A stretch of 64,000 nucleotides of DNA, taken from IMG/VR virus record IMGVR_UViG_3300036799_000043, positions 47,055 to 111,054 of that record; one strand, written 5' to 3'. The notes under the pieces are model-generated. The model was given only the letters and a program-made list of their open reading frames with translations. It had not been told where the DNA came from and searched no databases. The position numbers and the translations under genes were made by a program. This document shows positions 1-64,000 of the stretch, in pieces; position 1 is the first letter of the stretch; each line of letters starts with the position of its first letter. The DNA is from a virus.

Positions 1-193
1 TCCGACACGGTTTCTACGATGATTGGTCTATCGCTGACACTGCGCTGATCGAGCGCGTGCTGAGGTGTCCGATCAAAATCGAGCAGACTATCGATGAGCT
101 TGAATTCGATGCAGTCGTGCTTGAATTGCCAGTTGTCGTAGACAACGTTCTGGTTCAGTAGAGCCACCAATACACGACAAGGAGACTTACCCA

Positions 194-862: not shown

Positions 863-1313
863 CATCACCGCAGCGCTGCTTGTCGCGGTGCTCAGCGTGT
901 CGAGCGCCTACGCTGACGATCTGACTGTCTCGATCCCAGACATCAGCGTCAGCGCAGCGACAGAGCGACTGGGTGTCGTCGATGACGTGCTCAGCGCTCC
1001 AGACGATCCCGACTCGCTCGGCGTATTCGAGTTTGGCGAGCAGACGATCATTGCCGGTCACCGAGACTGGCAGTATCGTCTGCGCGCTTTCTCTCGCCTG
1101 GATCAGCTACAGCAAGGCGCAGAGGTCGACTTGAGTGACGGTCGCAGCTACAGCGTCGACTCGACTGCGGTGCTCGACGTAGACGACGCAGACGCGTGGT
1201 CGAGCTATCTGACTGGTGACGACTCGCTCGTACTCGTAACGTGTACAGGCCCGTTCTCCTTGAGTCGACACGAGTACTTGCAGCGCTTCGTCGTGCTCGC
1301 GTTGCCAAATTAG
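846..1313 (+). CDS. Class F sortase
   Basis: N-terminal anchor; IIAGHRD (His), AFSRLDQL, LVLVTCTG (Cys), YLQRFVVLA (Arg) catalytic motifs. Confidence 0.88.
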   Translation: MRSLLSITAALLVAVLSVSSAYADDLTVSIPDISVSAATERLGVVDDVLSAPDDPDSLGVFEFGEQTIIAGHRDWQYRLRAFSRLDQLQQGAEVDLSDGRSYSVDSTAVLDVDDADAWSSYLTGDDSLVLVTCTGPFSLSRHEYLQRFVVLALPN

Positions 1314-3313: not shown

Positions 3314-3790
3314 ATGAGTGACTTATTGATCGAGCGCGCGACACACGACGATTACTGGCTTATTCAGCAGATTGTAGAGTCTGCAAATTTGCCATCAGAC
3401 AATGTGCATTCGACACCGTTTCTGATTGCGCGCAAAGATCAAATACCAGTAGGCGTGATTGGCTACAGTATCGAGAGAGAGGGCTGGGTGCATGTGCGCT
3501 CACTCAGCGTACGTAAGTCGTTTCGGCGTCAAGGTATTGGCGAAGCACTGATACAAGCGCTCGTGGACTATCTCAAGACGCGCGATGACGCAACGGTGTT
3601 GATCGTTATGTGCATGTACTGGAACATTCGTTTCTACAAGAATCGAGGTTTTCAGCGCATCTCGTCGCAGGCGAAGCAACACGATCCAGTCGCAGCGCTT
3701 GAGGAACATTCGCACTGCACGTGCTTCGCTCTGCGACTACAGCAGCCTATTGAGGACGTGCTCGCGCCGCAGATGCTAAATGCCAAGTAG
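3314..3790 (+). CDS. GNAT family N-acetyltransferase
   Basis: SLSVRKSFRRQGIGEALI motif A and RFYKNRGF motif. Confidence 0.88.
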   Translation: MSDLLIERATHDDYWLIQQIVESANLPSDNVHSTPFLIARKDQIPVGVIGYSIEREGWVHVRSLSVRKSFRRQGIGEALIQALVDYLKTRDDATVLIVMCMYWNIRFYKNRGFQRISSQAKQHDPVAALEEHSHCTCFALRLQQPIEDVLAPQMLNAK

Positions 3791-4367
3791 GCCACCGCTA
3801 CCCGACAGTGACGCTGCGTACGTTTGCCGTAACCATCACACGGACGAGCTTGTCAGCGGCGCATTGTTCTCTCAAAACAACGAGCATCGATACGCGCTCT
3901 GGCGCATGTGGGGAGACGGTGCGTACGTGCTGTTTTGCGGATTGAACCCGTCGACTGCTGACGATCTCAAGAACGATCCGACGTGTACGCGTGAAGTGAA
4001 CTGGGCGCGAGCATGGGGCTTCGATGGCTTCGTCAAAGTGAACTGGGGCAGCTATCGCTCGACGAGTCCGCTCGTGCTCAAGGGTCTTGGGCCTGACACT
4101 GCGACTGGTGGGTTATTCAACGATATCGCGTTGATCCACTACGCTCGTCAGGCCGCGCTCGTCGTGGTGTGTTGGGGCGTACACGGTGCGCTCTGGCAGC
4201 ACGGTAGGAAGGTCGTCAGAGCATTGCAGACGTGGGACGTGCAGCCATACGCGTTTCACTTCTATCGCGCTGGTAAGCGTTACGCAGAGGTGGCAAACGG
4301 TGAGCCTCGTCACACGCTGTACCTGCCAAATTCTGCTCGACTGCACGCGTATCAAACGCGCCTCTAA
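3780..4367 (+). CDS. DUF1643 domain protein
   Basis: HRYALWRMW, GLNPSTAD..NDPT, VVVCWG, NGEPRH.LY motifs. Confidence 0.88.
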   Translation: MPSRPPLPDSDAAYVCRNHHTDELVSGALFSQNNEHRYALWRMWGDGAYVLFCGLNPSTADDLKNDPTCTREVNWARAWGFDGFVKVNWGSYRSTSPLVLKGLGPDTATGGLFNDIALIHYARQAALVVVCWGVHGALWQHGRKVVRALQTWDVQPYAFHFYRAGKRYAEVANGEPRHTLYLPNSARLHAYQTRL

Positions 4368-4395: not shown

Positions 4396-5064
4396 ATGTC
4401 GCATTCTGATGTACGTAAACAGACCGGGGTAGCTCAGTTGGTAGAGCACGGAGCGGGTACAAGTCGACACGATGAGCGCGCAGAGCACGTAGCTAGTGCC
4501 GAGCAGACTCAAAGCGAGAATTCGCGGCCCTTGCCGAAGCCAGACACGTTTGCAAGCGTGCGCGGAACAGGGAAAGAAACCTCCGAGGTCGTGGGTTCAA
4601 GTCCTGCCCCCGGTGCTAGATCGAGAGCAGGCGTACAGCTTCGCTGGCGTCAAGCTCTTGGCAGAGCAGAGTGCCCGTACGCGTACCGCTGGGTGCTGCC
4701 ACTCGGTCGCTTCGGCTCGATCAGGCTGCATCAGTGGTTGCGATCAGACGACGAGCGCGCAGCGCACGATCACCCGAGCGACTTTCTGACGCTCGTGCTG
4801 TTCGGCGGCTACGTCGACGCGCTTGAGCATGCAGACGGCTCGCAGAGTTACGACAGACTAGCTGTCGCAGCGGTGCGCTACAGACGCGCTGAGCACCGTC
4901 ACAGAGTCGTCCTGACGCATTCCCCAACGTGGACACTGCTGTACTTTGCGCCCGCGCGTCGTGACTGGGGTTTCTACAAGCGTCGAGCGATCGGTGGCTT
5001 TCGCTTTCTTCGGCAACACAAGTGGTTCGCGAGCTTCGGTCACCATCCGTGCGACCAGCAGTGA
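4396..5064 (+). CDS. Phage cupin-like protein (start uncertain; ORF reads through the tRNA-like element)
   Basis: RLHQWLRSDDERAAHDHP.DF.TLVLFGGY, HRHRV, WTLL...RRDWGF motifs in C-terminal 150 aa. Confidence 0.7.
   Translation: MSHSDVRKQTGVAQLVEHGAGTSRHDERAEHVASAEQTQSENSRPLPKPDTFASVRGTGKETSEVVGSSPAPGARSRAGVQLRWRQALGRAECPYAYRWVLPLGRFGSIRLHQWLRSDDERAAHDHPSDFLTLVLFGGYVDALEHADGSQSYDRLAVAAVRYRRAEHRHRVVLTHSPTWTLLYFAPARRDWGFYKRRAIGGFRFLRQHKWFASFGHHPCDQQ
4423..4615 (+). tRNA. tRNA-like RNA with 127-nt insert in place of the anticodon loop (Trp-like acceptor A1:U72/G73; anticodon undeterminable)
   Basis: Acceptor ACCGGGG/CCCCGGT; D arm GCTC-AGTTGGTA-GAGC; anticodon stem CGGAG(4449-53)/CTCCG(4581-85); T arm GTGGG-TTCAAGT-CCTGC. 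Confidence 0.75.
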
Positions 5065-21644: not shown

Positions 21645-21716
21645 AAGTGCGCATCTGCCGTCCTGCGAGCCAGTTGCGCACTTCCTATTCGATTCGAGCG
21701 CTGTGGTGCGGCGCTC
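21645..21716. terminator. Two hairpins between convergent transcription units
   Basis: AAGTGCGCA/TGCGCACTT (21645-83) and GAGCGC/GCGCTC (21696-716). Confidence 0.5.
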
Positions 21717-21728
21717 ACTGACAGCGTA

Positions 21729-23774
21729 TCAGTTCGCGATCAGATCGACCTCAGTCTCGACCTCGTGCTGCCACTTCGTGAGTGCCTTACGTCGATGCGC
21801 GTGCCAGAGCTTTGCATTTTCTCCAGGAGCTTCCCAGCGGCAGTCGCGCTCGACATTGACACAGCGTGGGTTTTCGCACATGTGCTCGACTGACAGTACC
21901 CGAGCTTTCATGAGCATCGCGACTTCGTTGAGATCGAGACCTTCCTTGACTGCGAGCAGCAGCGCGTAGACGAGCCATTGACGCCCCATATACGTACAGC
22001 GTGGACGACCGTTGCTGCCCTCCTGACTGAGTGAGTAGCTTGTCTCTGTACAGCCGTTGATACCGTACGGCCAGACGTGTCGTTTCCAGATCGCTAGTAG
22101 CTGCTCTGCGTCTCGTTGATCCGCACGTAGTCGACTACCTGTGATCCACTCTGGCATCGCTACAGGACCCGCTACAGGTAGCTTGTGTTCGACGATGGAT
22201 AGCGTCGCTTCGTCCTCTTCCAGGAACTTCTCCGCGTCTGCATCAAAAACCTCTGCATCCAACTCATCGCTGTACTGTTGCAGCGGTGCGAGTGCAGCCC
22301 GCTCTTGTGGTGCAGCGGCTTCGTCGTCGTCTAAGCCGCCCTCTATTCTCGGCGCTACTCTGACGTGCTCTCTGTGTACAGCAGCGCGAGTGATGTACGG
22401 CGCGAGGGATACGGCTTGCACGCCGGGTCTGCCTGCGACTAAGTAACCCTCTAACTGATCGAGCGTCACGTTGAGTACAAGCTCGCTCGCGCGCACTGCG
22501 AGTCCGGGTAAGTCTTTGAGAATATCCTCGCACCATTGACGACTTTGACGCGCGAGTGGACCGAGTCCCATGATGAGTGAAACCGCAGCGTTCGCTTGCA
22601 GCACAGTGCCCAAGTCTTGCGGGTCTTGCGACAGATACAGAATGCGCCAACCGCGGGCGCGCATCGAGCGAAAAAGGTCGTCCATCTCTGTGCGTCGAGT
22701 CTTGAGAAACGCCGCTTCCTCGAGGACGAGAATGACATCGTGCACGACTTCGGCTGCACGCTTGCACTGCACAATACCCGCGACACCGATCAACGGTGTC
22801 AGCTTTGGATTCGTGTAGCTGTTGCCGCTAAGGTGAATGATGACGGGCTCGTCACGGCTAAGCTCTGACACGAGATCGAAGTCATTGCCGAGTGATTCTG
22901 AGCACACACGCGACAGCGACTTGAGTCGGCGCAGCCACGTCTTTCTCGCGAGCGCTGGGACTTCTTCGTCCTCTTCCATGATGCGCTGACAGCGAGCGAT
23001 CATGTCTGGCCACGTGCGCTGTCTGTTCGCGCTGTCAATCTCCTCAAGCGCTTGAGAGATAGCGTCGCTCATCAACTGCGAGAAGAAGCCGGTACTTCCG
23101 GGTGACTCCGGCCAGATCGTCGGGATTGCTTCGGCGATCATCTCGCGATCACCGTCGAGCACGTTCCAGCCCAATCCCATACGAATGCGCCAGCGCAGCA
23201 CGCGCATGCCCATGTCTTCGGCTTCGTTCGTTGCTTCCTCAATCGGGTCGCTGCGATCAAAGCTCAGCACAACGACTTTGCGGCGCTTCCAGAAGCCAAG
23301 CGAGCGCATGATCCGCATCTTGAGTCCGATAGTTGGCTGCAAAATCATCGACACGACTGCGGTGCTCTTGCCGCTACCAGAGCCACCGACGATGAGTGCG
23401 TGCGTCTGATCGAGATACGTCATGACGCCGCCGACGTACCAGTACCAGGGCTGCACGAAAAAGTTACGCCGCCACGATGCGAAGCGTCGATGCCAGGGTT
23501 GTCGTCTGACGCGTATTGGGCGAACTTCCTTGGCGAGTTTCGATGTCACTGCAAAAGACATTCGCACTCGATTGATGACGAGCGCGAGCATGAGCCACAG
23601 CACGCCGAAGACGATGACGAAGCCAGCCCATGCGTCGACGCCAAGGTCTGCGAGATGCGTCAGGTCTTGATTCTGCCACGCGTCTTTGAGCGCGTCGACT
23701 GTCGGGCTTAGCTGCGACAGCGTGTCTGGTAGCTGTCGCAGCCCAGGCGCGATCTGATCGAGCCAGTCGCGCAT
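21729..23774 (-). CDS. VirD4/TraD-like type IV coupling ATPase with C-terminal HNH/His-Me-finger-like domain
   Basis: N-terminal TM; Walker A GGSGSGKS; Walker B ILVLEEA; RARGWRILYLSQDPQDL; C-terminal VEHMCENPRCVN..EN. Confidence 0.8.
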   Translation of the reverse strand: MRDWLDQIAPGLRQLPDTLSQLSPTVDALKDAWQNQDLTHLADLGVDAWAGFVIVFGVLWLMLALVINRVRMSFAVTSKLAKEVRPIRVRRQPWHRRFASWRRNFFVQPWYWYVGGVMTYLDQTHALIVGGSGSGKSTAVVSMILQPTIGLKMRIMRSLGFWKRRKVVVLSFDRSDPIEEATNEAEDMGMRVLRWRIRMGLGWNVLDGDREMIAEAIPTIWPESPGSTGFFSQLMSDAISQALEEIDSANRQRTWPDMIARCQRIMEEDEEVPALARKTWLRRLKSLSRVCSESLGNDFDLVSELSRDEPVIIHLSGNSYTNPKLTPLIGVAGIVQCKRAAEVVHDVILVLEEAAFLKTRRTEMDDLFRSMRARGWRILYLSQDPQDLGTVLQANAAVSLIMGLGPLARQSRQWCEDILKDLPGLAVRASELVLNVTLDQLEGYLVAGRPGVQAVSLAPYITRAAVHREHVRVAPRIEGGLDDDEAAAPQERAALAPLQQYSDELDAEVFDADAEKFLEEDEATLSIVEHKLPVAGPVAMPEWITGSRLRADQRDAEQLLAIWKRHVWPYGINGCTETSYSLSQEGSNGRPRCTYMGRQWLVYALLLAVKEGLDLNEVAMLMKARVLSVEHMCENPRCVNVERDCRWEAPGENAKLWHAHRRKALTKWQHEVETEVDLIAN

Positions 23775-23775
23775 G

Positions 23776-24368
23776 TCAGACCCACGTGAAGATCAGCGCG
23801 ACAGCATCAGCGAGCAACGAAAACGTGCCGCTGATAAGCCGACCGATCAGACTGAGCGTCATGCGCGGTGAGAAGATCAAGCCAGCGACAAGTACTGCCG
23901 CGATGCCGATCAGAGTGATTGTCTGCTCCATACTGCCACCTCCTTTCAACGTAGATGCCATTACTCTACAGCATCCATTGGCTCGTGCAGAGTAGGCAGA
24001 TCGGGACCATGCCTGAATAGCCCTCTAGCAAGGCCGTAACGCACTGCGCGCTCGACAAGCACTGCTAGCGAGTACGCGGCGAAGTACAGCAGCAGAGCGG
24101 CGGCGACGAGCGCTCCCACCGCAACCTGCTGCGTTAGCTCGACAACGTGTGGGTCTGCGTTGATTGTCGGTGAGCCGTACATCGCTCGCCAGAGAACTGG
24201 GAACTGTGTCGGCAGTAGCGTCGTGAGCAGCGCGCAGATGATGACGTGTCTCGCCATTTTCGTGCGATTGAACTTGAATATAGCGGTGATGAGTAAGCCG
24301 GCTGACAGCCAGACGGCGACACCAAACACGAACCAATCGAGAAAATATGCCGAGTCAGACTTGAGCAT
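23776..24368 (-). other. Two small membrane proteins of the tra-like operon (23776-23961; 23961-24368)
   Basis: Hydrophobic TM segments, coupled to flanking genes. Confidence 0.65.
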
Positions 24369-26629
24369 CAGGCAGCCACCATTTCAACGCGACGCGCGCG
24401 TTTTTCGTCTGGGTCTGTCGTGTACAGCGTTTGCTCCTCGGGGCACGCTTCAATTTTGAAGCTGACGACTCGTCGACCAATGCGCATGACCGCGTTGCGT
24501 ACACGAGCGGCGTCAGTGTCCCCAGGGTTCGGCTGGAATTTCATGACCTCAGCGCTCGCAGCGTCTCCCAACTGCAGCGCAGCAACGATGCTCGCGACTT
24601 CGTTCGGTGCCTGCGCGAGCACGATGAGCACTGGCGACATGCTGATTGCCTTGCGCGTTTGTTCGTTCTTGAGAAAGTCCCAGGCTTCTTGCGACGCGAA
24701 GACGCCAACAATGTTCGCGTTACGCCCTTGCGTCGCGACGCGCTCGATAAAGTCGCGTCCCGCGTGTGTCTTGGCGAGTACGTTCGCCTCGTCACAGCCG
24801 AAGATACGTGGTGTCAGTGAGTCAAGCTGTCGCGCCCACTCGTACTCAGCGATATACGCGAGCGCTTCTGCCTGCTGCTGCTGATTGAGACTTGCCAAGT
24901 TGTAGCAAATAGCGTCACTCTCGACGTATGGGATGTCCAGCGGGTCAGTGACGACGATGTAGTCTCCGCCGCATGCGCGCATTAGCGGCCAATAGTCGCC
25001 GTGCTTTCTCTCGCTCAGATGCGGCTTGAGATCGATCAGCGTGAACGGCAGCCCAGAGCGCACGATGAGCATCTGGATTAGAAACGTCTTGCCAGCGCCA
25101 GTCGCGCCCAGCATCGCGATCATCTTTGCGTATAGCGCTTTGTCTTCGATGTCGAGCATGACGACTTCTTGTGCGCCGCGCGCAGTGCCGAGCACGAAGC
25201 CGTTATTGCGCAGGCCAGACTGCCCGAATGGATGCACTGCAGCAACAGTCTCGCCGAGGTATGGTCGTGTCGGTCCCAATGGCGGTAAGCCGCCGATCGG
25301 CAGCGTTGCCCAGCGCCCCTGCATGTGCTCGAAGGTTGCTTCGCGAAAGATCGCATTTGCTTTGCGTAGACGGTTCTTGACACGCGGTGCGAACGCTTTT
25401 GGCATTGTCAGCGCGAGTGTCACGCGCTGCACGCTGTCCTCGTTGCGCTTGAGCTTCGCCTCGACGTACTGCAGATCAGCGAGCGCGTCGCGATGCTCTG
25501 TTGCTGCGGTTGGAAGCATGCACGCGCCTTCAAACCACTCCATGATCTTCGTCACCCACGCTGCGTCGTCAGGCTCGAAGAACAGACCAATATCAACTGG
25601 CAGTCCAGACACGATGTACATGATCCACGCGACGACGACGTTACGTGGAAAGTAGCGCACGACGATTGTCACCCAGTCCGTGTTGTCGATACCAAAGCTC
25701 GTCGTCGAGTGCGGGAAGTACTTACGTGTGCCGAGCACGCTGTCGAGAATGTCGTGCATCTCGTCGAGCTTCGTTTCGCGCACTTGCAGTCCAGCGTCAG
25801 TCAGCGCGCCAGTCACATCGCGCACGTGCTCGACGAGCTTGTCAGCAGACGGTGCTGAGCACACGACGACGATTCGGCGACGAGTGAGCGCTACTGCACG
25901 CTGACGCATCCAGCGCTCGATAGCAGCGCGCAGAAACGCGAAGCGACTGCCTACTGGAGGCATTGTGTGCTCGACGAGCCAGTCAGGGTCTTCTGGTCGA
26001 CACTGCGCGACGATCTGCACTGGGTACGTTGTCGCCTTGATACCAGCAGTAAAGCCTGCCCAGCGTGACGCTCTGTCGCTGTCGGTCATAAGCTCGATAG
26101 CGCCTTGTGCGTCGACTGGAATCATCATGCGGTGCGGTACATGATGCTCCCAGTACGTAGTCTTCCAGGGCGTGTGCTGCATGATGCGCCAGAACGGTGG
26201 TTCGCGTACGAACGTGAGCGACTCGCCCTGCAGTCGCATGCGCAGCATCTTCTCCGCATCGACTGGGAAATAGGTCGCACCGCGTGGGTCGTCGTACACG
26301 TCATACACGGCGTCGCTGCGTAGAAACCAGTGCTTGAGCGCAACGAACAGCCATAGGTGCATCCAGCGACCGCCGGGATGCACGATCACGAACGACATGC
26401 CGAGTGTCAGCACAACGACACGCGCGAGCATCATTGGCGAGATCAGCGTGCCCTCCTGAAACGGCGTATCGTCGAGATGTATCCAATTGTCGAGGCCGAA
26501 CGTCAGCCCGACAGTCAACAGGGTGGCAGCTACCTGCCACCCTGTTGCATCGAACGGTTTGCGAAGCGGTATCCAGGGCGGGTCGTCACCGAGACGCACT
26601 GGAACATAGCACTCATCGGCGCGCATCAT
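24368..26629 (-). CDS. PrgI-like membrane domain fused to VirB4/TraC-like ATPase
   Basis: Two N-terminal TMs followed by PGGRWMHLW; Walker A GATGAGKT; Walker B IFGCDEAN; GRNANIVGVFASQ. Confidence 0.8.
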   Translation of the reverse strand: MMRADECYVPVRLGDDPPWIPLRKPFDATGWQVAATLLTVGLTFGLDNWIHLDDTPFQEGTLISPMMLARVVVLTLGMSFVIVHPGGRWMHLWLFVALKHWFLRSDAVYDVYDDPRGATYFPVDAEKMLRMRLQGESLTFVREPPFWRIMQHTPWKTTYWEHHVPHRMMIPVDAQGAIELMTDSDRASRWAGFTAGIKATTYPVQIVAQCRPEDPDWLVEHTMPPVGSRFAFLRAAIERWMRQRAVALTRRRIVVVCSAPSADKLVEHVRDVTGALTDAGLQVRETKLDEMHDILDSVLGTRKYFPHSTTSFGIDNTDWVTIVVRYFPRNVVVAWIMYIVSGLPVDIGLFFEPDDAAWVTKIMEWFEGACMLPTAATEHRDALADLQYVEAKLKRNEDSVQRVTLALTMPKAFAPRVKNRLRKANAIFREATFEHMQGRWATLPIGGLPPLGPTRPYLGETVAAVHPFGQSGLRNNGFVLGTARGAQEVVMLDIEDKALYAKMIAMLGATGAGKTFLIQMLIVRSGLPFTLIDLKPHLSERKHGDYWPLMRACGGDYIVVTDPLDIPYVESDAICYNLASLNQQQQAEALAYIAEYEWARQLDSLTPRIFGCDEANVLAKTHAGRDFIERVATQGRNANIVGVFASQEAWDFLKNEQTRKAISMSPVLIVLAQAPNEVASIVAALQLGDAASAEVMKFQPNPGDTDAARVRNAVMRIGRRVVSFKIEACPEEQTLYTTDPDEKRARRVEMVAA

Positions 26630-26630
26630 G

Positions 26631-26879
26631 TCAGTGCGGCATCGAGACGGTCTGTACGCCGCCGACAGCTTTGAGTAGCAGATTGAACACGTCGTTTGGA
26701 CGCACGATGAAAATCAGCGCGAGCACAAGGCTACCGATCTCCGTCAGCGCGAAGGCGAAGCCCTTGGCGCCGCCCGTTGCGACTTTGTAGCCGAGCAGCA
26801 GCAGCATGACGACGATGATGGCAATGCCGACAAGCTGCAGTGTTCCGGCAAAATTGATAACGGCACTTTCTGGTTGCAT
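26631..26879 (-). CDS. VirB2/TrbC-like pilin-type membrane protein
   Basis: 82 aa, two TM helices, directly upstream of the VirB4-like gene; SD GGAG. Confidence 0.6.
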   Translation of the reverse strand: MQPESAVINFAGTLQLVGIAIIVVMLLLLGYKVATGGAKGFAFALTEIGSLVLALIFIVRPNDVFNLLLKAVGGVQTVSMPH

Positions 26880-26937
26880 CGTTTGTTATCTCCAGAACGC
26901 TCGTACGAGCAGGGCGAATGTAGACGCGAAGTACCTC

Positions 26938-27264
26938 CTACTCCTCATTGGGAATTTCAGCGCTGACATCGCAGCGCTCGTCGTTTGCGAAGCACGGCGT
27001 ATCGCTCATCTTTGCGAGCACGTGCACAGTGCATTGCGGTGTGTCGTCGTCGATAGGCGTCAGCACGACCCAATTAGGGTCGTCAGAGAGCCACACCGTG
27101 ACGTTTTCGTACGTCGTGAAGTCAGCGCAGCCGCCCGGCGCCTCAGCGCGATAGCGACCGTCAGTCAGCGCTAGACCAAAGCGCGTTGCGTCGACCGTGT
27201 CGGGCGTCGTGTAGCCCGTAGTCGGGAACAAGCTCTGCGCGAGTAGCAGTAAGGCGAAGATCAT
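26938..27264 (-). CDS. Small secreted Cys-containing protein
   Basis: Short signal-like N-terminus, four Cys. Confidence 0.6.
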   Translation of the reverse strand: MIFALLLLAQSLFPTTGYTTPDTVDATRFGLALTDGRYRAEAPGGCADFTTYENVTVWLSDDPNWVVLTPIDDDTPQCTVHVLAKMSDTPCFANDERCDVSAEIPNEE

Positions 27265-28253
27265 GGGCGTGCGAAGCGTGGGTTATGACTCGCGTAGAAA
27301 CCAGTGAAAATGTCGTTGATCTGCACGTGCGTACCTCCTGCATCGATCATTTTTCCGTTTCCAATGTACATACCTTCGTGAGTCGGATTGGCACCGCAGT
27401 CAGTGCACGTGTTGTCGAAAAATACGATATCGCCAGGTACGATCTGCTCGCGCGTGAGTGGCGTTGCCCAGAGAATCTGCTGTGTCGTCACACGTGGTGC
27501 GCTGATGTGCTCGTGAGCAAGCACGTTCTGCACGAAGCACGAGCAGTCGATGCCGTTACGTGAGCAGCCACCGAACAGATACGGCACGCCCAGCCACGAC
27601 GCTGCGTAGTCGAGCGCGTCGGCGAACCACGCGTTTGGATGCGCCTGTGCGACAGCGAGTGCGGCTTGTGACATGAACGCGAGATACGCGCCAGTGTGAT
27701 TCGGCCCACACGACACCGCGTACGTGAACCACGGGCAAAAGCCATGCTGCGCGAGCACAAATGCCGCATGCGCGTTGACTGCCGGAGTCTTGAGCGCGTC
27801 GACGCCACCGAACTGGGCTGCGTTGCGGTCGTTTATTTGCCATAGGCCAGTGTCGACACTCCCGTCGTTATTGTGGTGTTGCAGCGCGGGATCGCCGTCG
27901 TGATTCTCAGCGAGTGAGACTGCGACAGCTTCAATCAGTGCGTCACCAGTGAAGCCAGCTTGCTCCGCGAGCACAGCGCGCTCGACGACACTGGTGATGC
28001 CTGATGAGCCTGCAGCGATCACGACGGGATTGCCATTGATCGCGACATCGTTGCCTGTGCGCGTGACAAATTGCGGCCCAAACTGCGAAGCAGCCCACCA
28101 CTGGCCCCACGGCTGAGCGAATATCGATTGCGTCACACCAGCCGTCTCGACGAAGACGAAGCAGGCAATACCAGCGAGCAGATACAGCGCGTAACGCACG
28201 ATCTCATCGCCAAAGAAGAACGCGACGACAGAGCGAACAGCGGCGAGCATCAA
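27261..28253 (-). CDS. Bifunctional cell-wall hydrolase (lysozyme/SLT-like + NlpC/P60), CwlT-like
   Basis: AVSLAEN...DTGLWQIN; WLGVPYLFGG...GIDCS, HEGMYIGNG. Confidence 0.88.
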   Translation of the reverse strand: MMLAAVRSVVAFFFGDEIVRYALYLLAGIACFVFVETAGVTQSIFAQPWGQWWAASQFGPQFVTRTGNDVAINGNPVVIAAGSSGITSVVERAVLAEQAGFTGDALIEAVAVSLAENHDGDPALQHHNNDGSVDTGLWQINDRNAAQFGGVDALKTPAVNAHAAFVLAQHGFCPWFTYAVSCGPNHTGAYLAFMSQAALAVAQAHPNAWFADALDYAASWLGVPYLFGGCSRNGIDCSCFVQNVLAHEHISAPRVTTQQILWATPLTREQIVPGDIVFFDNTCTDCGANPTHEGMYIGNGKMIDAGGTHVQINDIFTGFYASHNPRFARP

Positions 28254-29473
28254 GCGGCTCCGTAGGCGGGTCTGTACGGGCGATTCGTTGCGGCAGAGCC
28301 AATACCAGTACCGTTGTAGCTACCCATCTGCTGTATCGGGTTGTGCGTTACGCCAGACGCAACTGCGCCTCCTGTCGTGCGAAACGAATTGACGCCCTGC
28401 TGAGCACGTCGAAACAGGAACATAAGTCCAGCTAGCCCGAACATGCTGCCAGCGCCGAGTCCCATCGGAGCGAAGATCGTCACGGCTTTGATCGCCATGA
28501 ACAGCACAGCGAGCTTGACGAGCACGGTCGCACCACTGTCAACGCCGTTGAAAAAGGTAAGTACGCTCGACGCGATGCTCAGACAGATGACGACGATTGG
28601 CTGGCCGAACAGCCAACCGAAGAACGAACGAAAGAGCAGCACGCCGTAGCTGCGCGTGACAGAGAACGCGAACAGCACACCTGAGATTGGCATGACTGTC
28701 GTCGTCAGAATCAACACGCCATCGCGCACGATCATCTTGACTTCGAGGATGAGCAGCACAATGGCGTAAATGAGACTCGTCAGCATACTTGAGAAGAACG
28801 TTGCGGGCACGCCGATGATGCCAGGGGGGCCCTCAGGCTGAGTGACACCTGGAATCTGCGGCTGAGGCGGCATCGTCAGTGAGTCCGCAGAGAACGTCAT
28901 GAGCGATGGATCGCCAAACTGAGCGCTGAGCGCGTTGCAGATGTCGACGCTGTGTATCGCGATGCTGTCGCTAAACATTGCGATGAGAAAGCCAACAACC
29001 ATGATTGGTAACAACTGCTGCATAGAAGTCGTACCCATCAGATTGCCAAACGCAAGCTGCACACCGACGTACACGATGCCGAGCAGAAACAGTGACAGGG
29101 CGACGAGACGCGCGACACCTCTGAGCTTTGCTGCGGTGTCGACGTTGATGAGATTCCACGGCGTGTTCGTGAAAATGTTCGGCCCTTTGAGCATCGCAGA
29201 CGCCATGTTGACGGGTACGCTCGCGTGATCGAACTCAGTATTTGCGACGAGAAAGTCCATCATGCCGACTGTTGCTTTGGGATCAGGCGATGGCGGTGTG
29301 ATGTTGACTGTCACGTTCGCGGGTGCAGACGGCGCCGGGTTTTGCACGATTGGATTGCCCGATCCAGGTGCAGGAATCGGCACGGGTTCGATGCCTGCTG
29401 GCGCAGCATTTGCAATAAGAGTCGTCAGAGTAAACGCGCAGATTGCAAGTGGCAATGCCATTCGACATTTCAT
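28250..29473 (-). CDS. VirB6/TrbL-like polytopic membrane protein (start probably ATG 29473)
   Basis: Signal-like N-terminus, Pro-rich region, 5-6 TMs, Gly-rich tail; first gene of the operon. Confidence 0.72.
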   Translation of the reverse strand: MKCRMALPLAICAFTLTTLIANAAPAGIEPVPIPAPGSGNPIVQNPAPSAPANVTVNITPPSPDPKATVGMMDFLVANTEFDHASVPVNMASAMLKGPNIFTNTPWNLINVDTAAKLRGVARLVALSLFLLGIVYVGVQLAFGNLMGTTSMQQLLPIMVVGFLIAMFSDSIAIHSVDICNALSAQFGDPSLMTFSADSLTMPPQPQIPGVTQPEGPPGIIGVPATFFSSMLTSLIYAIVLLILEVKMIVRDGVLILTTTVMPISGVLFAFSVTRSYGVLLFRSFFGWLFGQPIVVICLSIASSVLTFFNGVDSGATVLVKLAVLFMAIKAVTIFAPMGLGAGSMFGLAGLMFLFRRAQQGVNSFRTTGGAVASGVTHNPIQQMGSYNGTGIGSAATNRPYRPAYGAA

Positions 29474-29548
29474 GGTCGAGAAGTGTACACGCCGATGCGC
29501 CGTATTACTACGCAAACATCGGCAATACACACGTGTTACTCTCGCGGC

Positions 29549-29731
29549 GTGACGAGTGGCGATGGACTGCTGACCGTGCATGAGGTTGCTCAGCGCTTGA
29601 GAACGTCAGACGAGACAATCAGACGTTGGCTACGTAAGCGGCGTATACGCGGGACGAAGTTGTCGGCCAGAGGTAGATCAGGCTGGCGTGTGACAGAAAG
29701 CGAGCTACGACGAGTGCTAAGCTCTGACTGA
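29549..29731 (+). CDS. Excisionase-like (HTH_17/MerR-type) DNA-binding protein
   Basis: LLTVHEVAQRLRTSDETIRRWLRKRRIRGTK..GWRV; GTG 6 nt after extended -10 TG-T-TACTCT. Confidence 0.82.
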   Translation: MTSGDGLLTVHEVAQRLRTSDETIRRWLRKRRIRGTKLSARGRSGWRVTESELRRVLSSD

Positions 29732-29777: not shown

Positions 29778-29856
29778 AACGACACTGCGCTAGCGACTCA
29801 ATCGCCCTCTAGGCATGCGGTGTGACGAGTCCACTTCGGTCAAGCGCAGTGTCGTT
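29778..29856. repeat. Perfect 14-bp inverted repeat enclosing nested stems
   Basis: AACGACACTGCGCT ... AGCGCAGTGTCGTT. Confidence 0.8.
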
Positions 29857-29860
29857 TTAG

Positions 29861-29910
29861 GTCACAAAAGTGGCGAAAGTATTGCGCTCTAGTATTCAGT
29901 CGTGCATACT
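29861..29910 (+). promoter_or_regulatory. Promoter/operator copy P11
   Basis: GTCACA, TTGCGC(29882)-17-CATACT; ATG at 29920. Confidence 0.85.
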
Positions 29911-38081: not shown

Positions 38082-39731
38082 ATGGTAGTCGAGCAGTACG
38101 CGCCCGATGATGGGGGTTTCGACCGACTCTCGCTGCTCGAACAGCTTGAAGCTGACTACGCGTGGTGGCTCTGGCGACTGTTCCCGCAGTACTTCACAGA
38201 CGAATCTGGCAACGTCATTCCAATGGCAGACCATCACCACGACGCGTGGGAGTGGTTCTGGGAAATGCCAGATGCACGCCCGCGTCCGCTGATCTTCTTG
38301 CTGCCGCGTGGTGGCGGAAAGTCGACGACTGTTGAGCTTGGCGTGGTGTCGCTCGGCTGTCGCAACAAACGCAACTACGTGCTGTACGTGTCAGCGACGC
38401 AAGAGCAAGCTGACGATCACGTCACGAGCATTGGCGCGATGCTCGAATCACGCCGTCTAGAGATCGCGTACCCACAGATGTCAGATCGCTATGTCAACAA
38501 GTACGGCTCATCGAGAGGTTGGCGGCGAGATCGTCTGTGGACGAAAACGGGCTTTGTAATCGATGCGCTCGGACTCGACACTGCGAGTCGTGGCGTAAAA
38601 CTCGAGGATCGACGCCCAGACGTGATCGTGTTCGACGACATCGATGAGGATGGAGATACCGACAAAGAAGTGCGCAAGAAGGTGCGCATCATCACTCGTC
38701 GCTTACTGCCTGCTGCTGCGTCAGGTGGTAACACCGCAATAATCTTCTGTCAGAACCTCGTGCATGAGCGTTCGATAGCTGCTCTGCTGTGCAACCGCCA
38801 CCCTGATCCCAAGGGTGCGCAGCTTGACGACTTTCTCGTTGACAGACGCGTGATTGGTCCGATACCTGCTGTGCGCGACGCGGACGTACGCTTTCAGAAT
38901 AACCACTTTGAGCTAATCGCTGGCGAAGCGACATGGGCCGGTCAGTCGATTGAGGTCAATCAACGTCTGATCGATACAGACGGCTACTCGTCGTGGAAGC
39001 AAGAGCGTCAGCACGACGTAGAACCACCCGCTGGCGGCATGTTCTCGCATCTCGACTTTGAGGCTATGACTGTCGAGATGGCTGACGTACCGCCACTCGT
39101 GCGTATCGTCGGTGCGCTCGATCCCGCGGTGACGAATACAGACGACAGTGACTCTATGGCGCTGCAATTCGACGGCATTGGTGTCGACGACTGCATCTAT
39201 CGTCTGTGGTCGTGGGAGCAGCGTTCGACACCTGAGACAGCGATGGAGCTAGGCCTGCGGCGCTGCGTTCACTTCGGCGCAGATGCGCTCATCATCGAGA
39301 CAGATCAGGGCGGTGATCTGTGGCTAGAGAAAGCACCAGAGACATGGCTGCATCTCATCGCGAAGTGTGACGGTCGCGAGACAGATCAAGACTTTGCACC
39401 GCACTCAACAGCAGACGCGTGTCCGTATCTCGTGCACATCACTGAGAACTCGATCTTTCCAAGCGTGATCGGTATGAAAGCTGGCTCGACGCAGATGCCA
39501 AAAGCGCACCGTGCGTCACTCATGCTGCAGGACTACGAACGCCCGAATCAGATACGTCACGTGCGCAGTGGCACACATCAGGTGCTACGTGCTGCGCTGA
39601 ATCGCTTTCCGAAAACGAAGCCCCTGGACCTGACCGATGCCTCATTCTGGGCATGGAACGAACTGCGCAATCCGTCTGTCGTGCCGAGCTTCGTGCTGCA
39701 AGCTGCAGTCAGCGGGTGGTCACCGCGCTGA
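38082..39731 (+). CDS. terL: Terminase large subunit
   Basis: LPRGGGKST Walker A, VIVFDDID Walker B, GALDPA nuclease motif, DLTDA. Confidence 0.92.
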   Translation: MVVEQYAPDDGGFDRLSLLEQLEADYAWWLWRLFPQYFTDESGNVIPMADHHHDAWEWFWEMPDARPRPLIFLLPRGGGKSTTVELGVVSLGCRNKRNYVLYVSATQEQADDHVTSIGAMLESRRLEIAYPQMSDRYVNKYGSSRGWRRDRLWTKTGFVIDALGLDTASRGVKLEDRRPDVIVFDDIDEDGDTDKEVRKKVRIITRRLLPAAASGGNTAIIFCQNLVHERSIAALLCNRHPDPKGAQLDDFLVDRRVIGPIPAVRDADVRFQNNHFELIAGEATWAGQSIEVNQRLIDTDGYSSWKQERQHDVEPPAGGMFSHLDFEAMTVEMADVPPLVRIVGALDPAVTNTDDSDSMALQFDGIGVDDCIYRLWSWEQRSTPETAMELGLRRCVHFGADALIIETDQGGDLWLEKAPETWLHLIAKCDGRETDQDFAPHSTADACPYLVHITENSIFPSVIGMKAGSTQMPKAHRASLMLQDYERPNQIRHVRSGTHQVLRAALNRFPKTKPLDLTDASFWAWNELRNPSVVPSFVLQAAVSGWSPR

Positions 39732-41906: not shown

Positions 41907-41924
41907 GTGTTACGCTCAGACGCA

Positions 41925-43757
41925 ATGGCTGAGCGTCGTAAGACTGCGCGAGTGACGAAAGCGCCGCTCGCCACGAATGATCCATCAGCGCGTGCTGTAG
42001 CTCAAGCTGCTCGACAGTCCGCAGTTGGCAATCTCGCGAGCGTGCCGGGCATCACGGGTGTCGCAACAGCAACGCGCAAGACAGTCGACTCGCTTGGCGT
42101 ATTCTTCGGCAGTACGCCCGTAATCGTGCCACCTCCAAACTACGAAGGTGAGTGGCAGGTCTTCAATCTCGACGCGAACACGTTCGCGAAGCTCGGTCCG
42201 CAAGCGCTCGTCAATCGCATGATCGAGCTATCGCCAGACATCTCGCGAGCGCTCTGGGACTATCTGCGACTGTTCAACCCTGGCTGGACGCTTACGTGCT
42301 TCAACGTTGGAACTGACTCGCAGAACACGCGTGCACAGGCGATTGCTGACGCGATTGTCGCGAAGCTGAATCGTATGTACGGCACTGTCGACGTGCTGCA
42401 CGGTCGTATGGGCATGTCGATGTTTCTGCGCGGTGCACTGTTCTCGGAACTCGTGCTCGCGTTGAACGGCAGGGACTTCGTTGACATGCCAGTGATCGAT
42501 CCCGTCAGCGTGCGCTTCCGGCGTATGCAAGACGACGAGCGCGGCCAGTACTTTGAACTCGGCCAGATGCAAGTAACTGGCTACGTTCAACTCGATCAGT
42601 ACGAGACGATCACGTACATACCCGTTGACCCATCGCCAGACACTCCCTACGGTCGACCGATGGTGTCGCCAGCGATCTTCGCGAGCTTGTTCTTGCTCGG
42701 TCTGCTGCACGATCTGCGACGCGTCATCGCTCAGCAGGGTTACCCGCGCATCGATATCACAGTCGATCTGTCAGCGTTGTTTGACGAAGCGAAGAAGGCG
42801 ATGCCGAGCATTGTCAACAACCCGACAAAGTATGGCGAGTGGGTATCGAAAGTCTTCGACGGCATCAAAGACGTGTACGCGAATTTGCAGCCAGACGACG
42901 CGTACATCCACGGCTCGTCTGTCACTGTCAACAAACCCGTTGGCACCGCAGATCCGTCGAGTCTGGGTGCGATTCCGTCAATTATCGAGATCATCGAGCG
43001 TTGGCTTGTACGTGCGCTCAAGACGATGCCGCTACTCATGGCGACGCGTCAGTCGACGAGCGAGACGCAGGCGAACCGTGAGTGGGAGATTCACGCTGCA
43101 GGCATCAAGTCGCTGCAGCACTACGCCGAAGTGATCTGGGAGCGCCACATGTCGCTTGCGCTGCGCGCTCAGGGTATCCAGTGCGATGTACAGTTTCGTT
43201 ACGCCGAGCTACGCGCGAGCGAGATGATGCGCGATCAGCAGACGATGCAACTGCTTATCCAAAATGCGTTCGCCAAGTATGCGCTCGGCGTTGAAGATAT
43301 CGACGCAATGGCGACAGAGATCGCTGGTCATCCCGCGGTCGAGGAAGAGCCATTGTTCATCCCGAAAGCGTGGAGCAGTGGCGCACCAACTCCCGCTGAG
43401 CAGCAGAACCCAGACGGCACAGAGATCGCTGCGGGTGAGGGCGGTGACAAAGCGCGTGTTATCGAGTGGATGCCAAACCCGAACAGACTCAATATTACGC
43501 GTAAGATCGACGGTGCTGAGTACGTGCCGGTGCAGACCATGACGAATCGTGGTCGAGTCATCATGTGGCGCAAGCGTGGTACACGTGAAATTCGCGCTCC
43601 AGGCGGCGCTACAGGCAAGATCGAGTCGCACGGTGCAGTGCTCGCCGTACCTGACGTGAAAGTCGACAAGCGCTCGCTGCGTAAGGCTGTGACACGCTTC
43701 GACGACAGCGTGCCTGACTGGGCTGGCATTCTCGACGCGCGTGAGAAGACAGCATGA
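41925..43757 (+). CDS. Portal protein
   Basis: Size, position between terL and head genes, PYGRPM motif. Confidence 0.8.
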   Translation: MAERRKTARVTKAPLATNDPSARAVAQAARQSAVGNLASVPGITGVATATRKTVDSLGVFFGSTPVIVPPPNYEGEWQVFNLDANTFAKLGPQALVNRMIELSPDISRALWDYLRLFNPGWTLTCFNVGTDSQNTRAQAIADAIVAKLNRMYGTVDVLHGRMGMSMFLRGALFSELVLALNGRDFVDMPVIDPVSVRFRRMQDDERGQYFELGQMQVTGYVQLDQYETITYIPVDPSPDTPYGRPMVSPAIFASLFLLGLLHDLRRVIAQQGYPRIDITVDLSALFDEAKKAMPSIVNNPTKYGEWVSKVFDGIKDVYANLQPDDAYIHGSSVTVNKPVGTADPSSLGAIPSIIEIIERWLVRALKTMPLLMATRQSTSETQANREWEIHAAGIKSLQHYAEVIWERHMSLALRAQGIQCDVQFRYAELRASEMMRDQQTMQLLIQNAFAKYALGVEDIDAMATEIAGHPAVEEEPLFIPKAWSSGAPTPAEQQNPDGTEIAAGEGGDKARVIEWMPNPNRLNITRKIDGAEYVPVQTMTNRGRVIMWRKRGTREIRAPGGATGKIESHGAVLAVPDVKVDKRSLRKAVTRFDDSVPDWAGILDAREKTA

Positions 43758-63801: not shown

Positions 63802-64000
63802 GTCGACCACGTTCAATCTACTTTGGTCACATGAAACCAGGCATGACTGGTTCATGGGCACGCGTGCTCGCTGATTCACAGAAGACCCCATCACTCGGCT
63901 CGCTGACGAGCTTTTGGCCGGCAACGTTCACGTCGATACAGACAGCGCTCAATTTTTTCATAACAAATGGCGCTATCCCGGTACTCGACTGGAACTCATG
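63798..64000 (+). CDS. Partial CDS (baseplate/tail fibre region), truncated by window end
   Basis: ATGA overlap with baseplate J stop; open to the end. Confidence 0.55.
   Translation, partial: MSRPRSIYFGHMKPGMTGSWARVLADSQKTPSLGSLTSFWPATFTSIQTALNFFITNGAIPVLDWNS

Follow-up and report, generated by a model that had tools for sequence, protein, structure and literature searches.

The 64,000-nucleotide stretch of phage DNA analysed here (the window) carries an intact minimal monoderm-type T4SS, which is part of a ~105-125-kb uncultured myovirus lineage. The window belongs to a 111-kb record of an uncultured contractile-tailed phage that closes on itself through an end overlap of 214 bp, and PHROGs matches across the record identify TerL, portal, major capsid, sheath, tape measure and baseplate genes, confirming the terminase, head and contractile tail genes reported in an earlier note on this DNA. 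The central claim of that note, a monoderm-type T4SS gene set without relaxase inside a bona fide myovirus genome, is supported here, but its description of the system as 'complete' was too strong, as no VirB8-like component was recognised. Judged from sequence, the block is a long-resident phage module rather than an ICE that inserted recently or an obvious chimera, and we infer that the phage may use it to move DNA or proteins from cell to cell without virions.

One translationally coupled operon

The eight co-oriented minus-strand genes described earlier are all present and intact (window 21729-29581). Stop and start codons of successive genes touch or overlap (TGATG, TGACATG, TAATG), indicating a single translationally coupled operon, from which a gene for an excisionase-family HTH protein diverges (Table 1).

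Table 1. Features of the T4SS block and its borders, in window coordinates
Feature	Position	Strand	Evidence
VirB6/TrbL-like polytopic membrane protein	28250..29581	-	translation, hydropathy, protein atlas
SLT_3 + NlpC/P60 peptidoglycan hydrolase, membrane-anchored	27261..28253	-	Pfam, PDB sequence matches
Small secreted Cys-containing protein, 108 aa, no family	26938..27264	-	translation
Two-TM hairpin protein, 82 aa, candidate VirB2/TrbC-like (or ConC-like) subunit	26631..26879	-	weak Pfam, hydropathy
VirB4 ATPase, 753 aa, N-terminal membrane segment	24368..26629	-	Foldseek, NCBIfam, profile matches
135-aa protein, ~3 TM segments, no family	23961..24368	-	translation, hydropathy
61-aa protein, two TM segments, no family	23776..23961	-	translation, hydropathy
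T4CP-like ATPase, membrane-anchored, 681 aa, C-terminal His-Me/HNH-like domain	21729..23774	-	Foldseek, atlas, motif
Excisionase-family (MerR/AlpA-like) HTH protein, 51 aa, divergent	29576..29731	+	NCBIfam, PADLOC
Perfect 14-bp inverted repeat just past the HTH gene, 51 nt between arms	29778-29791, 29843-29856		repeat search
13-nt inverted repeat, arms 92% complementary, 13 nt between	21645..21683		repeat search

The VirB6-like assignment held: the protein falls with TrbL_3/TrbL_4/TrbL clusters of the atlas (0.90-0.92, TM-score 0.57-0.64 to TrbL-family clusters), with no match in Pfam, NCBIfam or PHROG. Its longest ORF spans 443 aa, and the likely true start at ATG 29473 gives a 407-aa product with some 5-6 TM segments, a predicted signal peptide and an extracellular stretch rich in Pro. 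Both domains claimed for the 330-aa hydrolase are recognised by Pfam (SLT_3 5.3e-16, NLPC_P60 7.3e-20), behind a hydrophobic N-terminal segment (residues 1-41), and its PDB sequence matches include the Tn916-like CTn hydrolases 4hpe and 9ubf as well as the CwlT-like 4fdy. By prediction it is a bifunctional lysozyme-like and NlpC/P60 endopeptidase of CwlT/Tn916 Orf14-type architecture, an analogue of VirB1. The protein previously called pilin-like is a two-TM hairpin, its gene preceded by a GGAG Shine-Dalgarno sequence, and its resemblance to a pilin amounts to a weak, sub-cut-off Pfam TrbC/VIRB2 match (E 0.0066). Family searches gave no match for the 108-aa protein, which has a hydrophobic N-terminal leader, for the 135-aa protein, whose start overlaps the VirB4 stop, or for the 61-aa protein.

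The excisionase-like HTH, likewise confirmed, exceeds the curated cut-off of NCBIfam TIGR01764 (8.4e-8; 32.5 bits versus 28.8), also matches PADLOC mad1 (3.2e-6), and may regulate the operon. Compared with the genes around it, the block is inverted, and none of the 10 strict copies of the early promoter in the window faces the operon. The operon, lacking this phage-wide promoter, is probably switched separately, perhaps via the HTH protein; phage-family promoters, at 29882 and 30327, lie directly to the right of the block. The 14-bp inverted repeat is a candidate terminator, operator or transfer-origin-like site, with a fold stability not significantly above that of shuffled sequences (z -1.3). 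At the other border, the 13-nt repeat between converging plus-strand genes and the operon end is likely a bidirectional terminator.

The two ATPases

Of the PrgI-VirB4 fusion proposed earlier, the VirB4 part stood, and what had been read as PrgI is recognisable as N-terminal TM helices in a VirB3/PrgI-like position. Foldseek against the PDB matched the model to R388 TrwK/VirB4 (E 2.2e-17, ~780 columns) and T. pseudethanolicus VirB4 (3.7e-8), with HerA reaching only 1e-5; the larger ATPase thus classifies as VirB4 and not with FtsK/HerA, the outcome that the earlier note had named as counting against its reading. NCBIfam matches to conju_CD1110 (4.7e-12), TraC (4e-10) and VirB4_CagE (1.3e-8) all fall under their cut-offs, and distant profile matches bear AAA_10, P-loop_TraG, TraC_F_IV and CagE_TrbE_VirB. 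Walker A and B are conserved among relatives of both ATPases, and in the VirB4 family Walker A (G508..K514 T515) and Walker B (D613 E614) are invariant. A search of 185,579 species genomes gave no close relative of VirB4 (best ~31% over ~130 aa), and just 6 matches fell below 1e-30 among 1.84 billion representatives; a VirB4 at 51% is present on 28 contigs, the longest of 123 kb.

The second ATPase comprises a TM region (~residues 41-76), Walker A (130-138), a helical insertion (~230-305), Walker B (LEEA, 351-354) and an acidic disordered linker leading to a His-Me/HNH-like domain (~560-681, encoded at window 21732-22097). Its earlier description as VirD4-like is favoured by Foldseek, with TrwB as best PDB match (6e-6), and by the atlas, which places it with TrwB_AAD_bind clusters (0.97), its nearest clusters also carrying TraG-D_C and T4SS-DNA_transf; VIA-align instead places TrwB (Z 12.4) below the VirB4 C-terminal domain (16.8), DndH-C (15.7) and HerA (15.2). 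Pfam matches (FtsK_SpoIIIE, T4SS-DNA_transf, TrwB_AAD_bind) are at P-loop level only, and the PADLOC mad8 match (6e-10) is at P-loop-clade level, shared by both ATPases. We accordingly describe the protein as an FtsK/HerA/VirD4-class NTPase that is T4CP-like, its identity as a T4CP not being secure. The same caution applies to its C-terminus, termed His-Me/HNH-like from a (D/E)H-C-N-C...N motif conserved in 11/11 relatives (an Asp replacing one conserved His in the window's own copy), a strand-strand-helix at residues 628-680 of the AF2 model at medium confidence (pLDDT about 60-69), and weak, sub-threshold Pfam matches to zf-His_Me_endon (0.027) and HNH_3 (0.2). We know of no characterised T4CP for which a C-terminal nuclease-type domain has been described.

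Known relatives and possible functions

The block is akin to the monoderm MPF-FA/FATA systems of ICEBs1 (ConE/ConG/CwlT/ConQ), Tn916/CTn (Orf16/15/14/21), pCW3 Tcp and pCF10 Prg, with which it shares VirB4, a VirB6-like protein, a two-domain wall hydrolase, small TM proteins, a membrane-anchored coupling ATPase and the absence of outer-membrane parts; of the named VirB4 models, that of the C. difficile CD1110 family comes closest. Unlike these systems, it lies in a tailed-phage genome, misses all curated HMM cut-offs by far, follows an unusual gene order (VirB6, hydrolase, ..., VirB4, ..., T4CP), has no recognised VirB8-like (TcpC/PrgL/ConB) protein and bears a His-Me/HNH-like domain on its coupling ATPase. 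It also comes without relaxase, oriT, integrase or a replication/partition module: the absence of relaxase and integrase noted for the window held across the whole 111-kb record in six-frame HMM searches at E<=1 (MOB P/Q, F, T and V models; integrases, tyrosine/serine recombinases and resolvases), ParA/ParB gave no HMM match in the record at permissive thresholds, and neither a replication-initiator or partition signature nor an oriT was identified there. The majority of proteins encoded by the phage fit no family, so that a highly divergent relaxase might go unrecognised among them. The second ATPase resembles T4CPs (TrwB/VirD4; the FtsK-like TcpA/Orf21) in its N-terminal membrane anchor, in the RecA-like NBD with helical insertion that comes next, and in the place of its gene, last in a T4SS operon; it differs in its P-loop-only matches in Pfam/NCBIfam, its long acidic linker and its nuclease-type domain.

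A published partial precedent is gp155/gp156 of Bacillus phage G, a 498-kb megaphage, described as TraC/TraD-like homologues of "function entirely unknown" and not as a full module (PMC12484599). Our VirB4 model matches gp155 ('VirB-like') in BFVD (E 3.6e-26, TMt 0.68) and in pairwise BLASTP (8e-10). Within gp150-gp157, small TM proteins and a polytopic membrane protein precede gp155, followed by the TraD-like membrane ATPase gp156 and the HNH endonuclease gene gp157. In phage G, however, HNH is a separate gene, the cluster has no wall hydrolase and gp155 no TM N-terminus; the T4CP-HNH family reaches an hhalign probability of <=1.5% with gp156 or gp157, limiting detectable homology to VirB4. 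Virion and mobile-element genes also share one DNA molecule in phage-ICE tandems and phage-plasmids, as described in PMC13651849 and PMC12282955, and a TrsE-like gene is present in the Streptococcus 'phages' phi-SgaBSJ27/31_rum. A tandem consists of two separable elements with integrase and relaxase on each, whereas the window phage has neither, and its module, unlike those of tandems and phage-plasmids, is part of the phage in composition and evolution.

Our preferred reading, which we put somewhat short of an even chance, is that the T4SS sends phage (or host) DNA to neighbouring cells. The hydrolase would open the wall of the infected cell, VirB6, VirB4 and the small proteins would build the channel, and T4CP-HNH, as a terminase-like 'cut and pump' unit of hexameric translocase and nuclease, would generate an end in replicating phage (or host) DNA and pump the DNA through the channel into a touching neighbour, with neither relaxase nor virions needed. 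Canonical T4SSs recognise DNA only via a covalently bound relaxase and, to our knowledge, HNH nucleases form no such adducts, so that relaxase-free DNA passage through a VirB4/VirB6 channel has no proven precedent that we know of. Streptomyces TraB/clt transfers dsDNA with a pumping ATPase and no relaxase, in a system with no VirB4/VirB6 channel, and phage terminases (TerL, or TerL with an HNH helper) combine ATPase and nuclease to cut and pump into capsids; both would be functional analogues, with homology shown no further than the P-loop clade. Fast host killing by a virulent phage would leave little time for mating, which speaks against DNA transfer.

It is possible, if rather unlikely, that the same machine carries another cargo, exporting phage effectors, toxins or anti-defence factors to neighbours or the medium to kill competitors or prime neighbours, the HNH domain serving some other role such as DNA anchoring or regulation. 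T4SSs are basically protein translocators, effector and bacteria-killing T4SSs work without relaxase, T4CPs also serve protein substrates, and the genome lacks both relaxase and oriT; however, the analysis turned up no effector candidate bearing a recognisable secretion signal, the monoderm T4SSs known so far are nearly all conjugative, and a conserved nuclease-type domain fused to the coupling ATPase points to DNA. Distinctly unlikely is an inward or gate-keeping machine (ComB- or archaeal Ced-like import, or superinfection/conjugation exclusion), in which channel and ATPase-nuclease would import DNA of foreign or neighbouring origin, or degrade it, either to salvage nucleotides or to keep rivals out. 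Breakdown of incoming DNA would suit a membrane-tethered translocase-nuclease, and RNR and ThyX attest the phage's heavy outlay on nucleotide supply, but ComB and Ced have no T4CP, similarity to CedB is negligible (E 0.059), and wall hydrolase and VirB6 fit an export channel equally well. Relaxase-less T4SS-derived importers do exist (Ced, as described in PMC12282955). The weak likeness to the defence components mad8 and mad1 loses force for exclusion given the P-loop-clade level of the mad8 match and the absence of other defence-system components.

Residence in the phage genome

In codon usage the block correlates with the rest of the genome (RSCU correlation 0.969, 67th percentile among equal-sized blocks), and its tetranucleotide distance lies below the genome mean, in keeping with the phage-like sequence style noted earlier by eye; as also noted, att-like repeats are absent, with no flanking repeat of at least 12 bp. 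A 79% TerL match and T4CP-HNH (in one 90% cluster with an 80% match) share the same longest contig size in JGI, 109,824 bp, as do an 80% TerL match and a 68% VirB4 match in Logan, 111,273 bp, and from these matching sizes each contig appears to hold a ~80% identical TerL together with one module ATPase. Matching composition, the apparent sister contigs and the lack of a close cellular relative together bear out the long residence suggested previously.

These data make it very improbable that the block is a passenger with no part in the phage life cycle, whether a remnant, decaying or selfish, of a mating module that an ancestral phage received from an ICE or plasmid or, for the hydrolase and small TM proteins, a lysis cassette. 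Its inversion, the missing phage-wide promoter, an adjoining excisionase-type HTH typical of integrative elements and the lack of another recognised endolysin among ORFs of at least 190 aa would fit such an origin, but 8/8 ORFs are intact and translationally coupled, catalytic motifs are invariant in relatives down to ~51% identity, composition is fully ameliorated and the module appears kept in sister phages, which together are the signature of long purifying selection. Although the record is a metagenome assembly, an artefactual joining of a conjugative-element fragment of a co-occurring bacterium to phage DNA is scarcely credible given indistinguishable codon usage and tetranucleotides, phage-family promoters immediately beside the block, the absence of a close copy in cellular genomes, and two independent assemblies that appear to pair TerL with a module ATPase.

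The phage genome and its T4SS-like operon

Terminase, portal, head, sheath, tape measure and baseplate genes were recognised by PHROG profiles in a single plus-strand late module (table), bearing out the earlier note's account of intact terminase, head and contractile tail genes, and across the record junction it is followed by genes for a baseplate protein resembling Mu Gp48 and a fibre-like protein (Laminin_G/fn3) of 1,696 aa. With these structural genes on one molecule, the record is that of a tailed phage (Caudoviricetes) with a contractile tail. The first 214 bp (G000:C1:1-214, in coordinates of the full record) recur at 110841-111054 (window 63787-64000) at 97.2% identity, and the assembly therefore effectively closes on itself at ~110.8 kb, by circular permutation or a terminal repeat, so that the whole genome could be screened; the 6 mismatches between the ends suggest a terminal repeat or population variants. 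The record is 111,054 bp long, with the window as its bases 47055-111054, and IMG/VR labels it linear and 86% complete. Other genes of the genome specify RNR and ThyX, an annealase of the Rad52 type and a helicase-like AAA_25 protein; a large majority of its proteins lack any family match.

Window positions 21729-29581 are filled by eight minus-strand ORFs, as had been read from the sequence; stop and start codons of neighbouring ORFs overlap or directly adjoin (TGATG, TGACATG, TAATG), a sign of one translationally coupled operon.

Features of the window and of the 681-aa protein (operon genes numbered in transcription order)
Feature	Position	Strand	Size	Remarks
1, VirB6/TrbL-like	28250-29581	-	443 aa	likely start ATG 29473 (407 aa); signal peptide, Pro-rich stretch, ~5-6 hydrophobic segments
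2, TM-anchored hydrolase	27261-28253	-	330 aa	SLT_3 5e-16, NlpC/P60 7e-20, both above cut-off
3, secreted protein		-	108 aa	
4, two-TM hairpin protein		-	82 aa	weak TrbC/VirB2 match, E 0.0066
5, VirB4	24368-26629	-	753 aa	
6, membrane protein		-	135 aa	~three TM segments
7, membrane protein		-	61 aa	two TM segments
8, T4CP-like ATPase	21729-23774	-	681 aa	
TM helix of 8	residues ~41-76			
P-loop of 8				GGSGSGKST
Helical insertion of 8	residues ~230-305			
Walker B of 8				LEEA
C-terminal domain of 8				preceded by acidic disordered linker
HTH gene	29576-29731	+	51 aa	TIGR01764, 32.5 bits (cut-off 28.8)
Large terminase (TerL)	38082-39731	+		PHROG 5e-41
Portal	41907-43757	+		PHROG 7e-35
Major head protein (HK97-type major capsid)	48317-49591	+		PHROG 3e-34
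Tail sheath	53032-54504	+		PHROG 1.5e-23
Tape measure	55743-58856	+		PHROG 2e-44
Baseplate wedge	62155-63801	+		PHROG 9e-43
Promoter copies	1317, 5685, 13704, 15118, 15804, 17312, 20426, 29882, 30327	+		
Promoter copy	41906	-		

In the hydrolase, the previously noted pairing of SLT and NlpC/P60 domains forms the CwlT/Tn916-Orf14 architecture; its PDB matches include Tn916-like CTn hydrolases, and by its domain content it is the probable wall hydrolase of a monoderm T4SS (MPF-FA/FATA). The 443-aa ORF matched nothing in the HMM libraries (Pfam, NCBIfam), and its neighbours in the protein atlas are TrbL/TrbL_3/TrbL_4 and VirB6 clusters (feature score 0.90-0.92, structure TM-score 0.57-0.64), which serve as leads only. 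HMM searches recognised no VirB8-like protein (NTF2 fold, as in TcpC/PrgL/ConB) and assigned the 61-, 82-, 108- and 135-aa proteins to no family, so that what the earlier note called a complete conjugation gene set is narrowed to the core parts of a monoderm channel. The HTH gene is oriented divergently, at a distance of ~100 bp from the operon start, and its excisionase-family assignment holds at the curated cut-off. Two perfectly matching 14-bp arms, 51 nt apart, form an inverted repeat between this gene and the next promoter (window 29778-29856); it may act as terminator, operator or a site akin to a transfer origin, and its fold stability is not significantly above that of shuffles (z -1.3).

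The two ATPases of the module

The 753-aa protein belongs to a small family of 12 proteins among 5.8 billion, all metagenomic, in which Walker A and Walker B are invariant. In Foldseek searches with an AlphaFold model built on these 12 sequences (pLDDT 64), the best PDB matches were full-length TrwK/VirB4 of R388 (E 2e-17, ~780 aligned columns), followed by the VirB4 C-terminal domain of T. pseudethanolicus (4e-8) and, at only 1e-5, HerA, twelve orders of magnitude behind TrwK. A profile search of 1.84 billion representatives returned only 6 proteins below 1e-30 and then more than 1,100 distant ones, a sample of which contained AAA_10, P-loop_TraG, TraC_F_IV and CagE_TrbE_VirB domains. The protein itself stays below the curated cut-offs of Pfam (AAA_10, 21.9 bits vs 27.5; TraC_F_IV, 24 vs 28.1) and far under those of NCBIfam, where it matches conju_CD1110 at 4.7e-12, TraC at 4e-10 and VirB4_CagE at 1.3e-8 (NF045971, 45 bits vs 325; TIGR00929, 33.5 vs 643). 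Taken with the two-domain architecture of the model, these data identify it as a true VirB4 of a very divergent branch. The earlier note had proposed a PrgI-VirB4 fusion; the VirB4 part stands, and the PrgI part is seen only as TM helices in the first ~100 residues, the position that a VirB3/PrgI-like part occupies in monoderm systems.

The assignment of the 681-aa protein is less strict, and the VirD4-like label it had received is retained in a weaker form. HMM libraries match its P-loop only. Foldseek placed TrwB first (6e-6), closely followed by DndH-C (6.6e-6) and HerA (1.6e-5), and the nearest atlas clusters are TrwB_AAD_bind, TraG-D_C and T4SS-DNA_transf (0.96-0.97), whereas VIA-align ranked the VirB4 C-terminal domain (Z 16.8), DndH-C (15.7) and HerA (15.2) above TrwB (12.4). 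Since these rankings conflict, we name the protein T4CP-like only, by modelled architecture and position and short of strict family membership. All 11 members of its family share the C-terminal motif GC...GRP...W...Y...(D/E)H.C.N..C....H..W....N...H.RR, a pattern that we take to be that of HNH_3/His-Me-finger endonucleases; His631, Cys633, Cys638 and Asn653 are invariant in the 11 sequences, and the window's copy carries Asp in place of one conserved His. Weak Pfam matches to zf-His_Me_endon occur in 3 of 11 members (best 0.027) and to HNH_3 in one (0.2), the model forms a strand-strand-helix at residues 628-680 (pLDDT ~60-69), and PDB sequences gave no match to the domain. A nuclease-type domain is thus predicted here, as likely but not proven.

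Comparison with known systems and proposed function

In its components (wall hydrolase, VirB6-like protein, VirB4, coupling ATPase and small membrane subunits) the module agrees with the minimal mating channel that ICEBs1, Tn916 and pCW3 carry, and, as in Gram-positive mating channels, outer-membrane components are absent. Unlike in Gram-positive conjugative elements, where a relaxase normally pilots the DNA, the block has no relaxase, and a predicted nuclease-type domain is fused to the coupling motor. The earlier statement that relaxase, integrase and att-like repeats are absent from the window could be extended to the whole 111-kb record: six-frame searches at E<=1 found no Relaxase, TrwC, MobA_MobL, Rep_trans or Mob_Pre (PF03432, PF08751, PF03389, PF02486, PF01076), the relaxase screen consisting of these five HMMs, and likewise no tyrosine integrase (PF00589) or resolvase (PF00239). 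ParB (ParB_N) and ParA (AAA_31) had no match in the record either, and no direct or inverted repeat of at least 12 bp links the two flanks of the block. Judged by these HMM and repeat searches, the block is not a self-transmissible ICE or conjugative plasmid, which would be expected to carry a relaxase with oriT and either an integrase or recombinase with att sites or plasmid replication/partition genes.

In work on horizontal gene transfer, phages and conjugative elements count as two distinct vehicles, and each has machinery of its own. Phage-ICE tandems and phage-plasmids keep integrases, relaxases or plasmid maintenance genes, whereas the phage described here does not. Two S. gallolyticus 'phage' records of 106-110 kb, Streptococcus phage phi-SgaBSJ27_rum and BSJ31_rum (MN270258/MN270259), have a TrsE-like (VirB4) gene at ~61.6-62.4 kb; they may represent phage-ICE tandems and not modules resident in a phage. 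The best viral match in BFVD was, unexpectedly, gp155 of Bacillus phage G (E 3.6e-26, TMt 0.68), annotated 'VirB-like' in GenBank. Small TM proteins and the polytopic gp153 lie before gp155, and after it come the ATPase gp156, with 2 TM segments, and the HNH endonuclease gp157. In phage G, gp150-gp157 (JN638751, 10972-17839 of the stretch analysed, 86971-93838 of the record) thereby resemble a T4SS-like cluster of three small TM proteins, gp153, gp155, gp156 and gp157. That both clusters combine VirB4 with a membrane ATPase and an HNH or HNH-like part is striking, but sequence homology was seen for VirB4 alone; between the T4CP-like family and gp156/gp157, hhalign found nothing beyond Walker A. 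Of the phage G cluster, only gp155/156 are covered in the published description (PMC12484599). In the literature we found this as the only partial precedent, and no account of a tailed phage with a full T4SS module. Whereas T4SSs as such are known, this one is new in that it resides in a phage, has no relaxase and joins its coupling ATPase to a predicted nuclease domain.

By analogy with terminases and Streptomyces TraB, we tentatively prefer a relaxase-free 'cut and pump' export of DNA from infected cells into touching neighbours. A wider and less probable reading makes this a second, virion-independent transmission route of a virulent-type tailed phage: infected cells would build the phage-encoded T4SS, and the T4CP-HNH fusion, in the place of the relaxase, would cut phage DNA and pump it, terminase-like, into adjoining cells; such a contact route would be useful in soil aggregates, filaments or biofilms, where virion diffusion is poor. 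The phage would then be a true 'conjugative phage' with a new DNA-processing logic for type IV secretion. Movement of DNA would require host range, spread in structured habitats and phage gene flow to be rethought, and the T4CP-nuclease fusion, if it acts in this manner, would represent relaxase-independent DNA loading into a T4SS, a question that also concerns archaeal and some actinobacterial systems. The TraC/TraD-like genes of the cultivated megaphage G, so far unexplained, also gain a context from this module and are a possible experimental entry point.

A channel of the same parts could instead deliver proteins or effectors, which we regard as unlikely and which would be a new phage strategy to manipulate bystander cells. 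It is quite unlikely that the machine handles DNA inward or as a gate-keeper, in the manner of Ced/ComB, or serves for exclusion; this reading finds a weak echo in PADLOC, where mad8 matches both ATPases (681-aa protein, 6e-10; 753-aa protein, 3.3e-8) and mad1 the HTH protein (3.2e-6), but we judge these matches to be clade-level, and the full component set of MADS (methyltransferase, kinase, nuclease and others) or HerA-type defence (Sir2, DUF4297 or NurA partner) is not present, the other six block proteins matching no PADLOC model. The same matches suggest, at clade level, a common ancestry of MADS defence components with T4SS ATPases and regulators. A passenger remnant or a role in lysis is very unlikely. 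Of the earlier interpretation, the resident, relaxase-less T4SS-type module in a phage stands, and DNA or protein transfer is a function that we only infer.

Probable long residence of the module in the phage lineage

By eye the block had seemed to match the phage in style, and composition agrees: its GC, GC3 and RSCU match those of the structural and other genes, with an RSCU correlation to the rest of 0.969 the block ranks at the 67th percentile among all gene blocks of the same size, and 8-kb windows are on average more distant from the genome in tetranucleotides than the block is. Promoters of one family, TTGCGC-N17-CAGYGCTGTATAKT (in detail TTGCGC-N17-CAG(Y)GCTGTATA(G/T)T), occur phage-wide; the start codon follows 6-13 nt after the -10, a spacing that implies leaderless mRNAs, which often open with ATGAACACGAC. 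The copies at 29882 and 30327 adjoin the block and none faces the T4SS operon; the module therefore appears embedded in phage DNA yet separately controlled.

Relatives were recovered from independent data sources. In JGI data, the longest contig measures 109,824 bp both for the TerL cluster (79% identity) and for P0298, a T4CP-HNH protein that shares a 90% cluster with P0015; P0015 and the window's T4CP-HNH protein are 80% identical. In Logan, the longest contig is 111,273 bp both for TerL at 80% and for VirB4 at 68%. A further VirB4, at 51%, was found on 28 contigs, the longest of 123,182 bp. TerL and a module ATPase thus appear to co-occur on sister contigs, as read from equal longest-contig figures rather than directly from synteny, and the lineage comprises several genome-sized contigs of ~105-125 kb from apparently lytic myoviruses. 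Among cellular genomes, one for each of 185,579 prokaryote species, there was no close VirB4; the best match (~31% over ~130 residues) was in Clostridia MAGs and Thermoplasmata, and near these distant genes the other seven block proteins had no match. Related-locus searches of viral and metagenome collections returned nothing, and a plasmid collection gave a single marginal DUF87 match. Composition, the lack of flanking repeats and mobility genes, the adjacent phage promoters, the sister contigs and the absence of a close cellular VirB4 together argue that the module has probably been long resident and under selection in the phage lineage, and against a recent ICE insertion or a chimera, an assembly artefact being exceedingly improbable. 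An apparently lytic myovirus lineage would then have kept a whole monoderm mating channel under selection.

Among 50,697 phages, DNA and protein searches found no match to the block, VirB4 or TerL, and the major capsid protein matched only at ~26% identity, so that no cultured close relative or host is known. Host hints are only weak: the module is of monoderm type, atlas neighbours are commonest in Actinomycetota, and the leaderless early genes hint at a host with common leaderless translation, e.g. Actinomycetota or Deinococcota.

Finally, ARAGORN found no tRNA or tmRNA anywhere in the window (4423-4615 included), and Pfam Sortase (PF04203) had no match in the whole record at E<=0.1, a 222-aa ORF within window 194-1313 being without Pfam match. 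A weak match to DUF932, a family frequent on conjugative elements and phages, lies at G000:C1:12239-13369 (-), with YAcAr/SLOG and DUF1643 proteins at G000:C1:16894-17655 (-) and window 3780-4367 (+), respectively. The gene directly after ThyX, within G000:C1:28998-31144, encodes 423 aa with a 2OG oxygenase domain of the Asp/Asn beta-hydroxylase type, and the two form a possible nucleotide or DNA modification pair.
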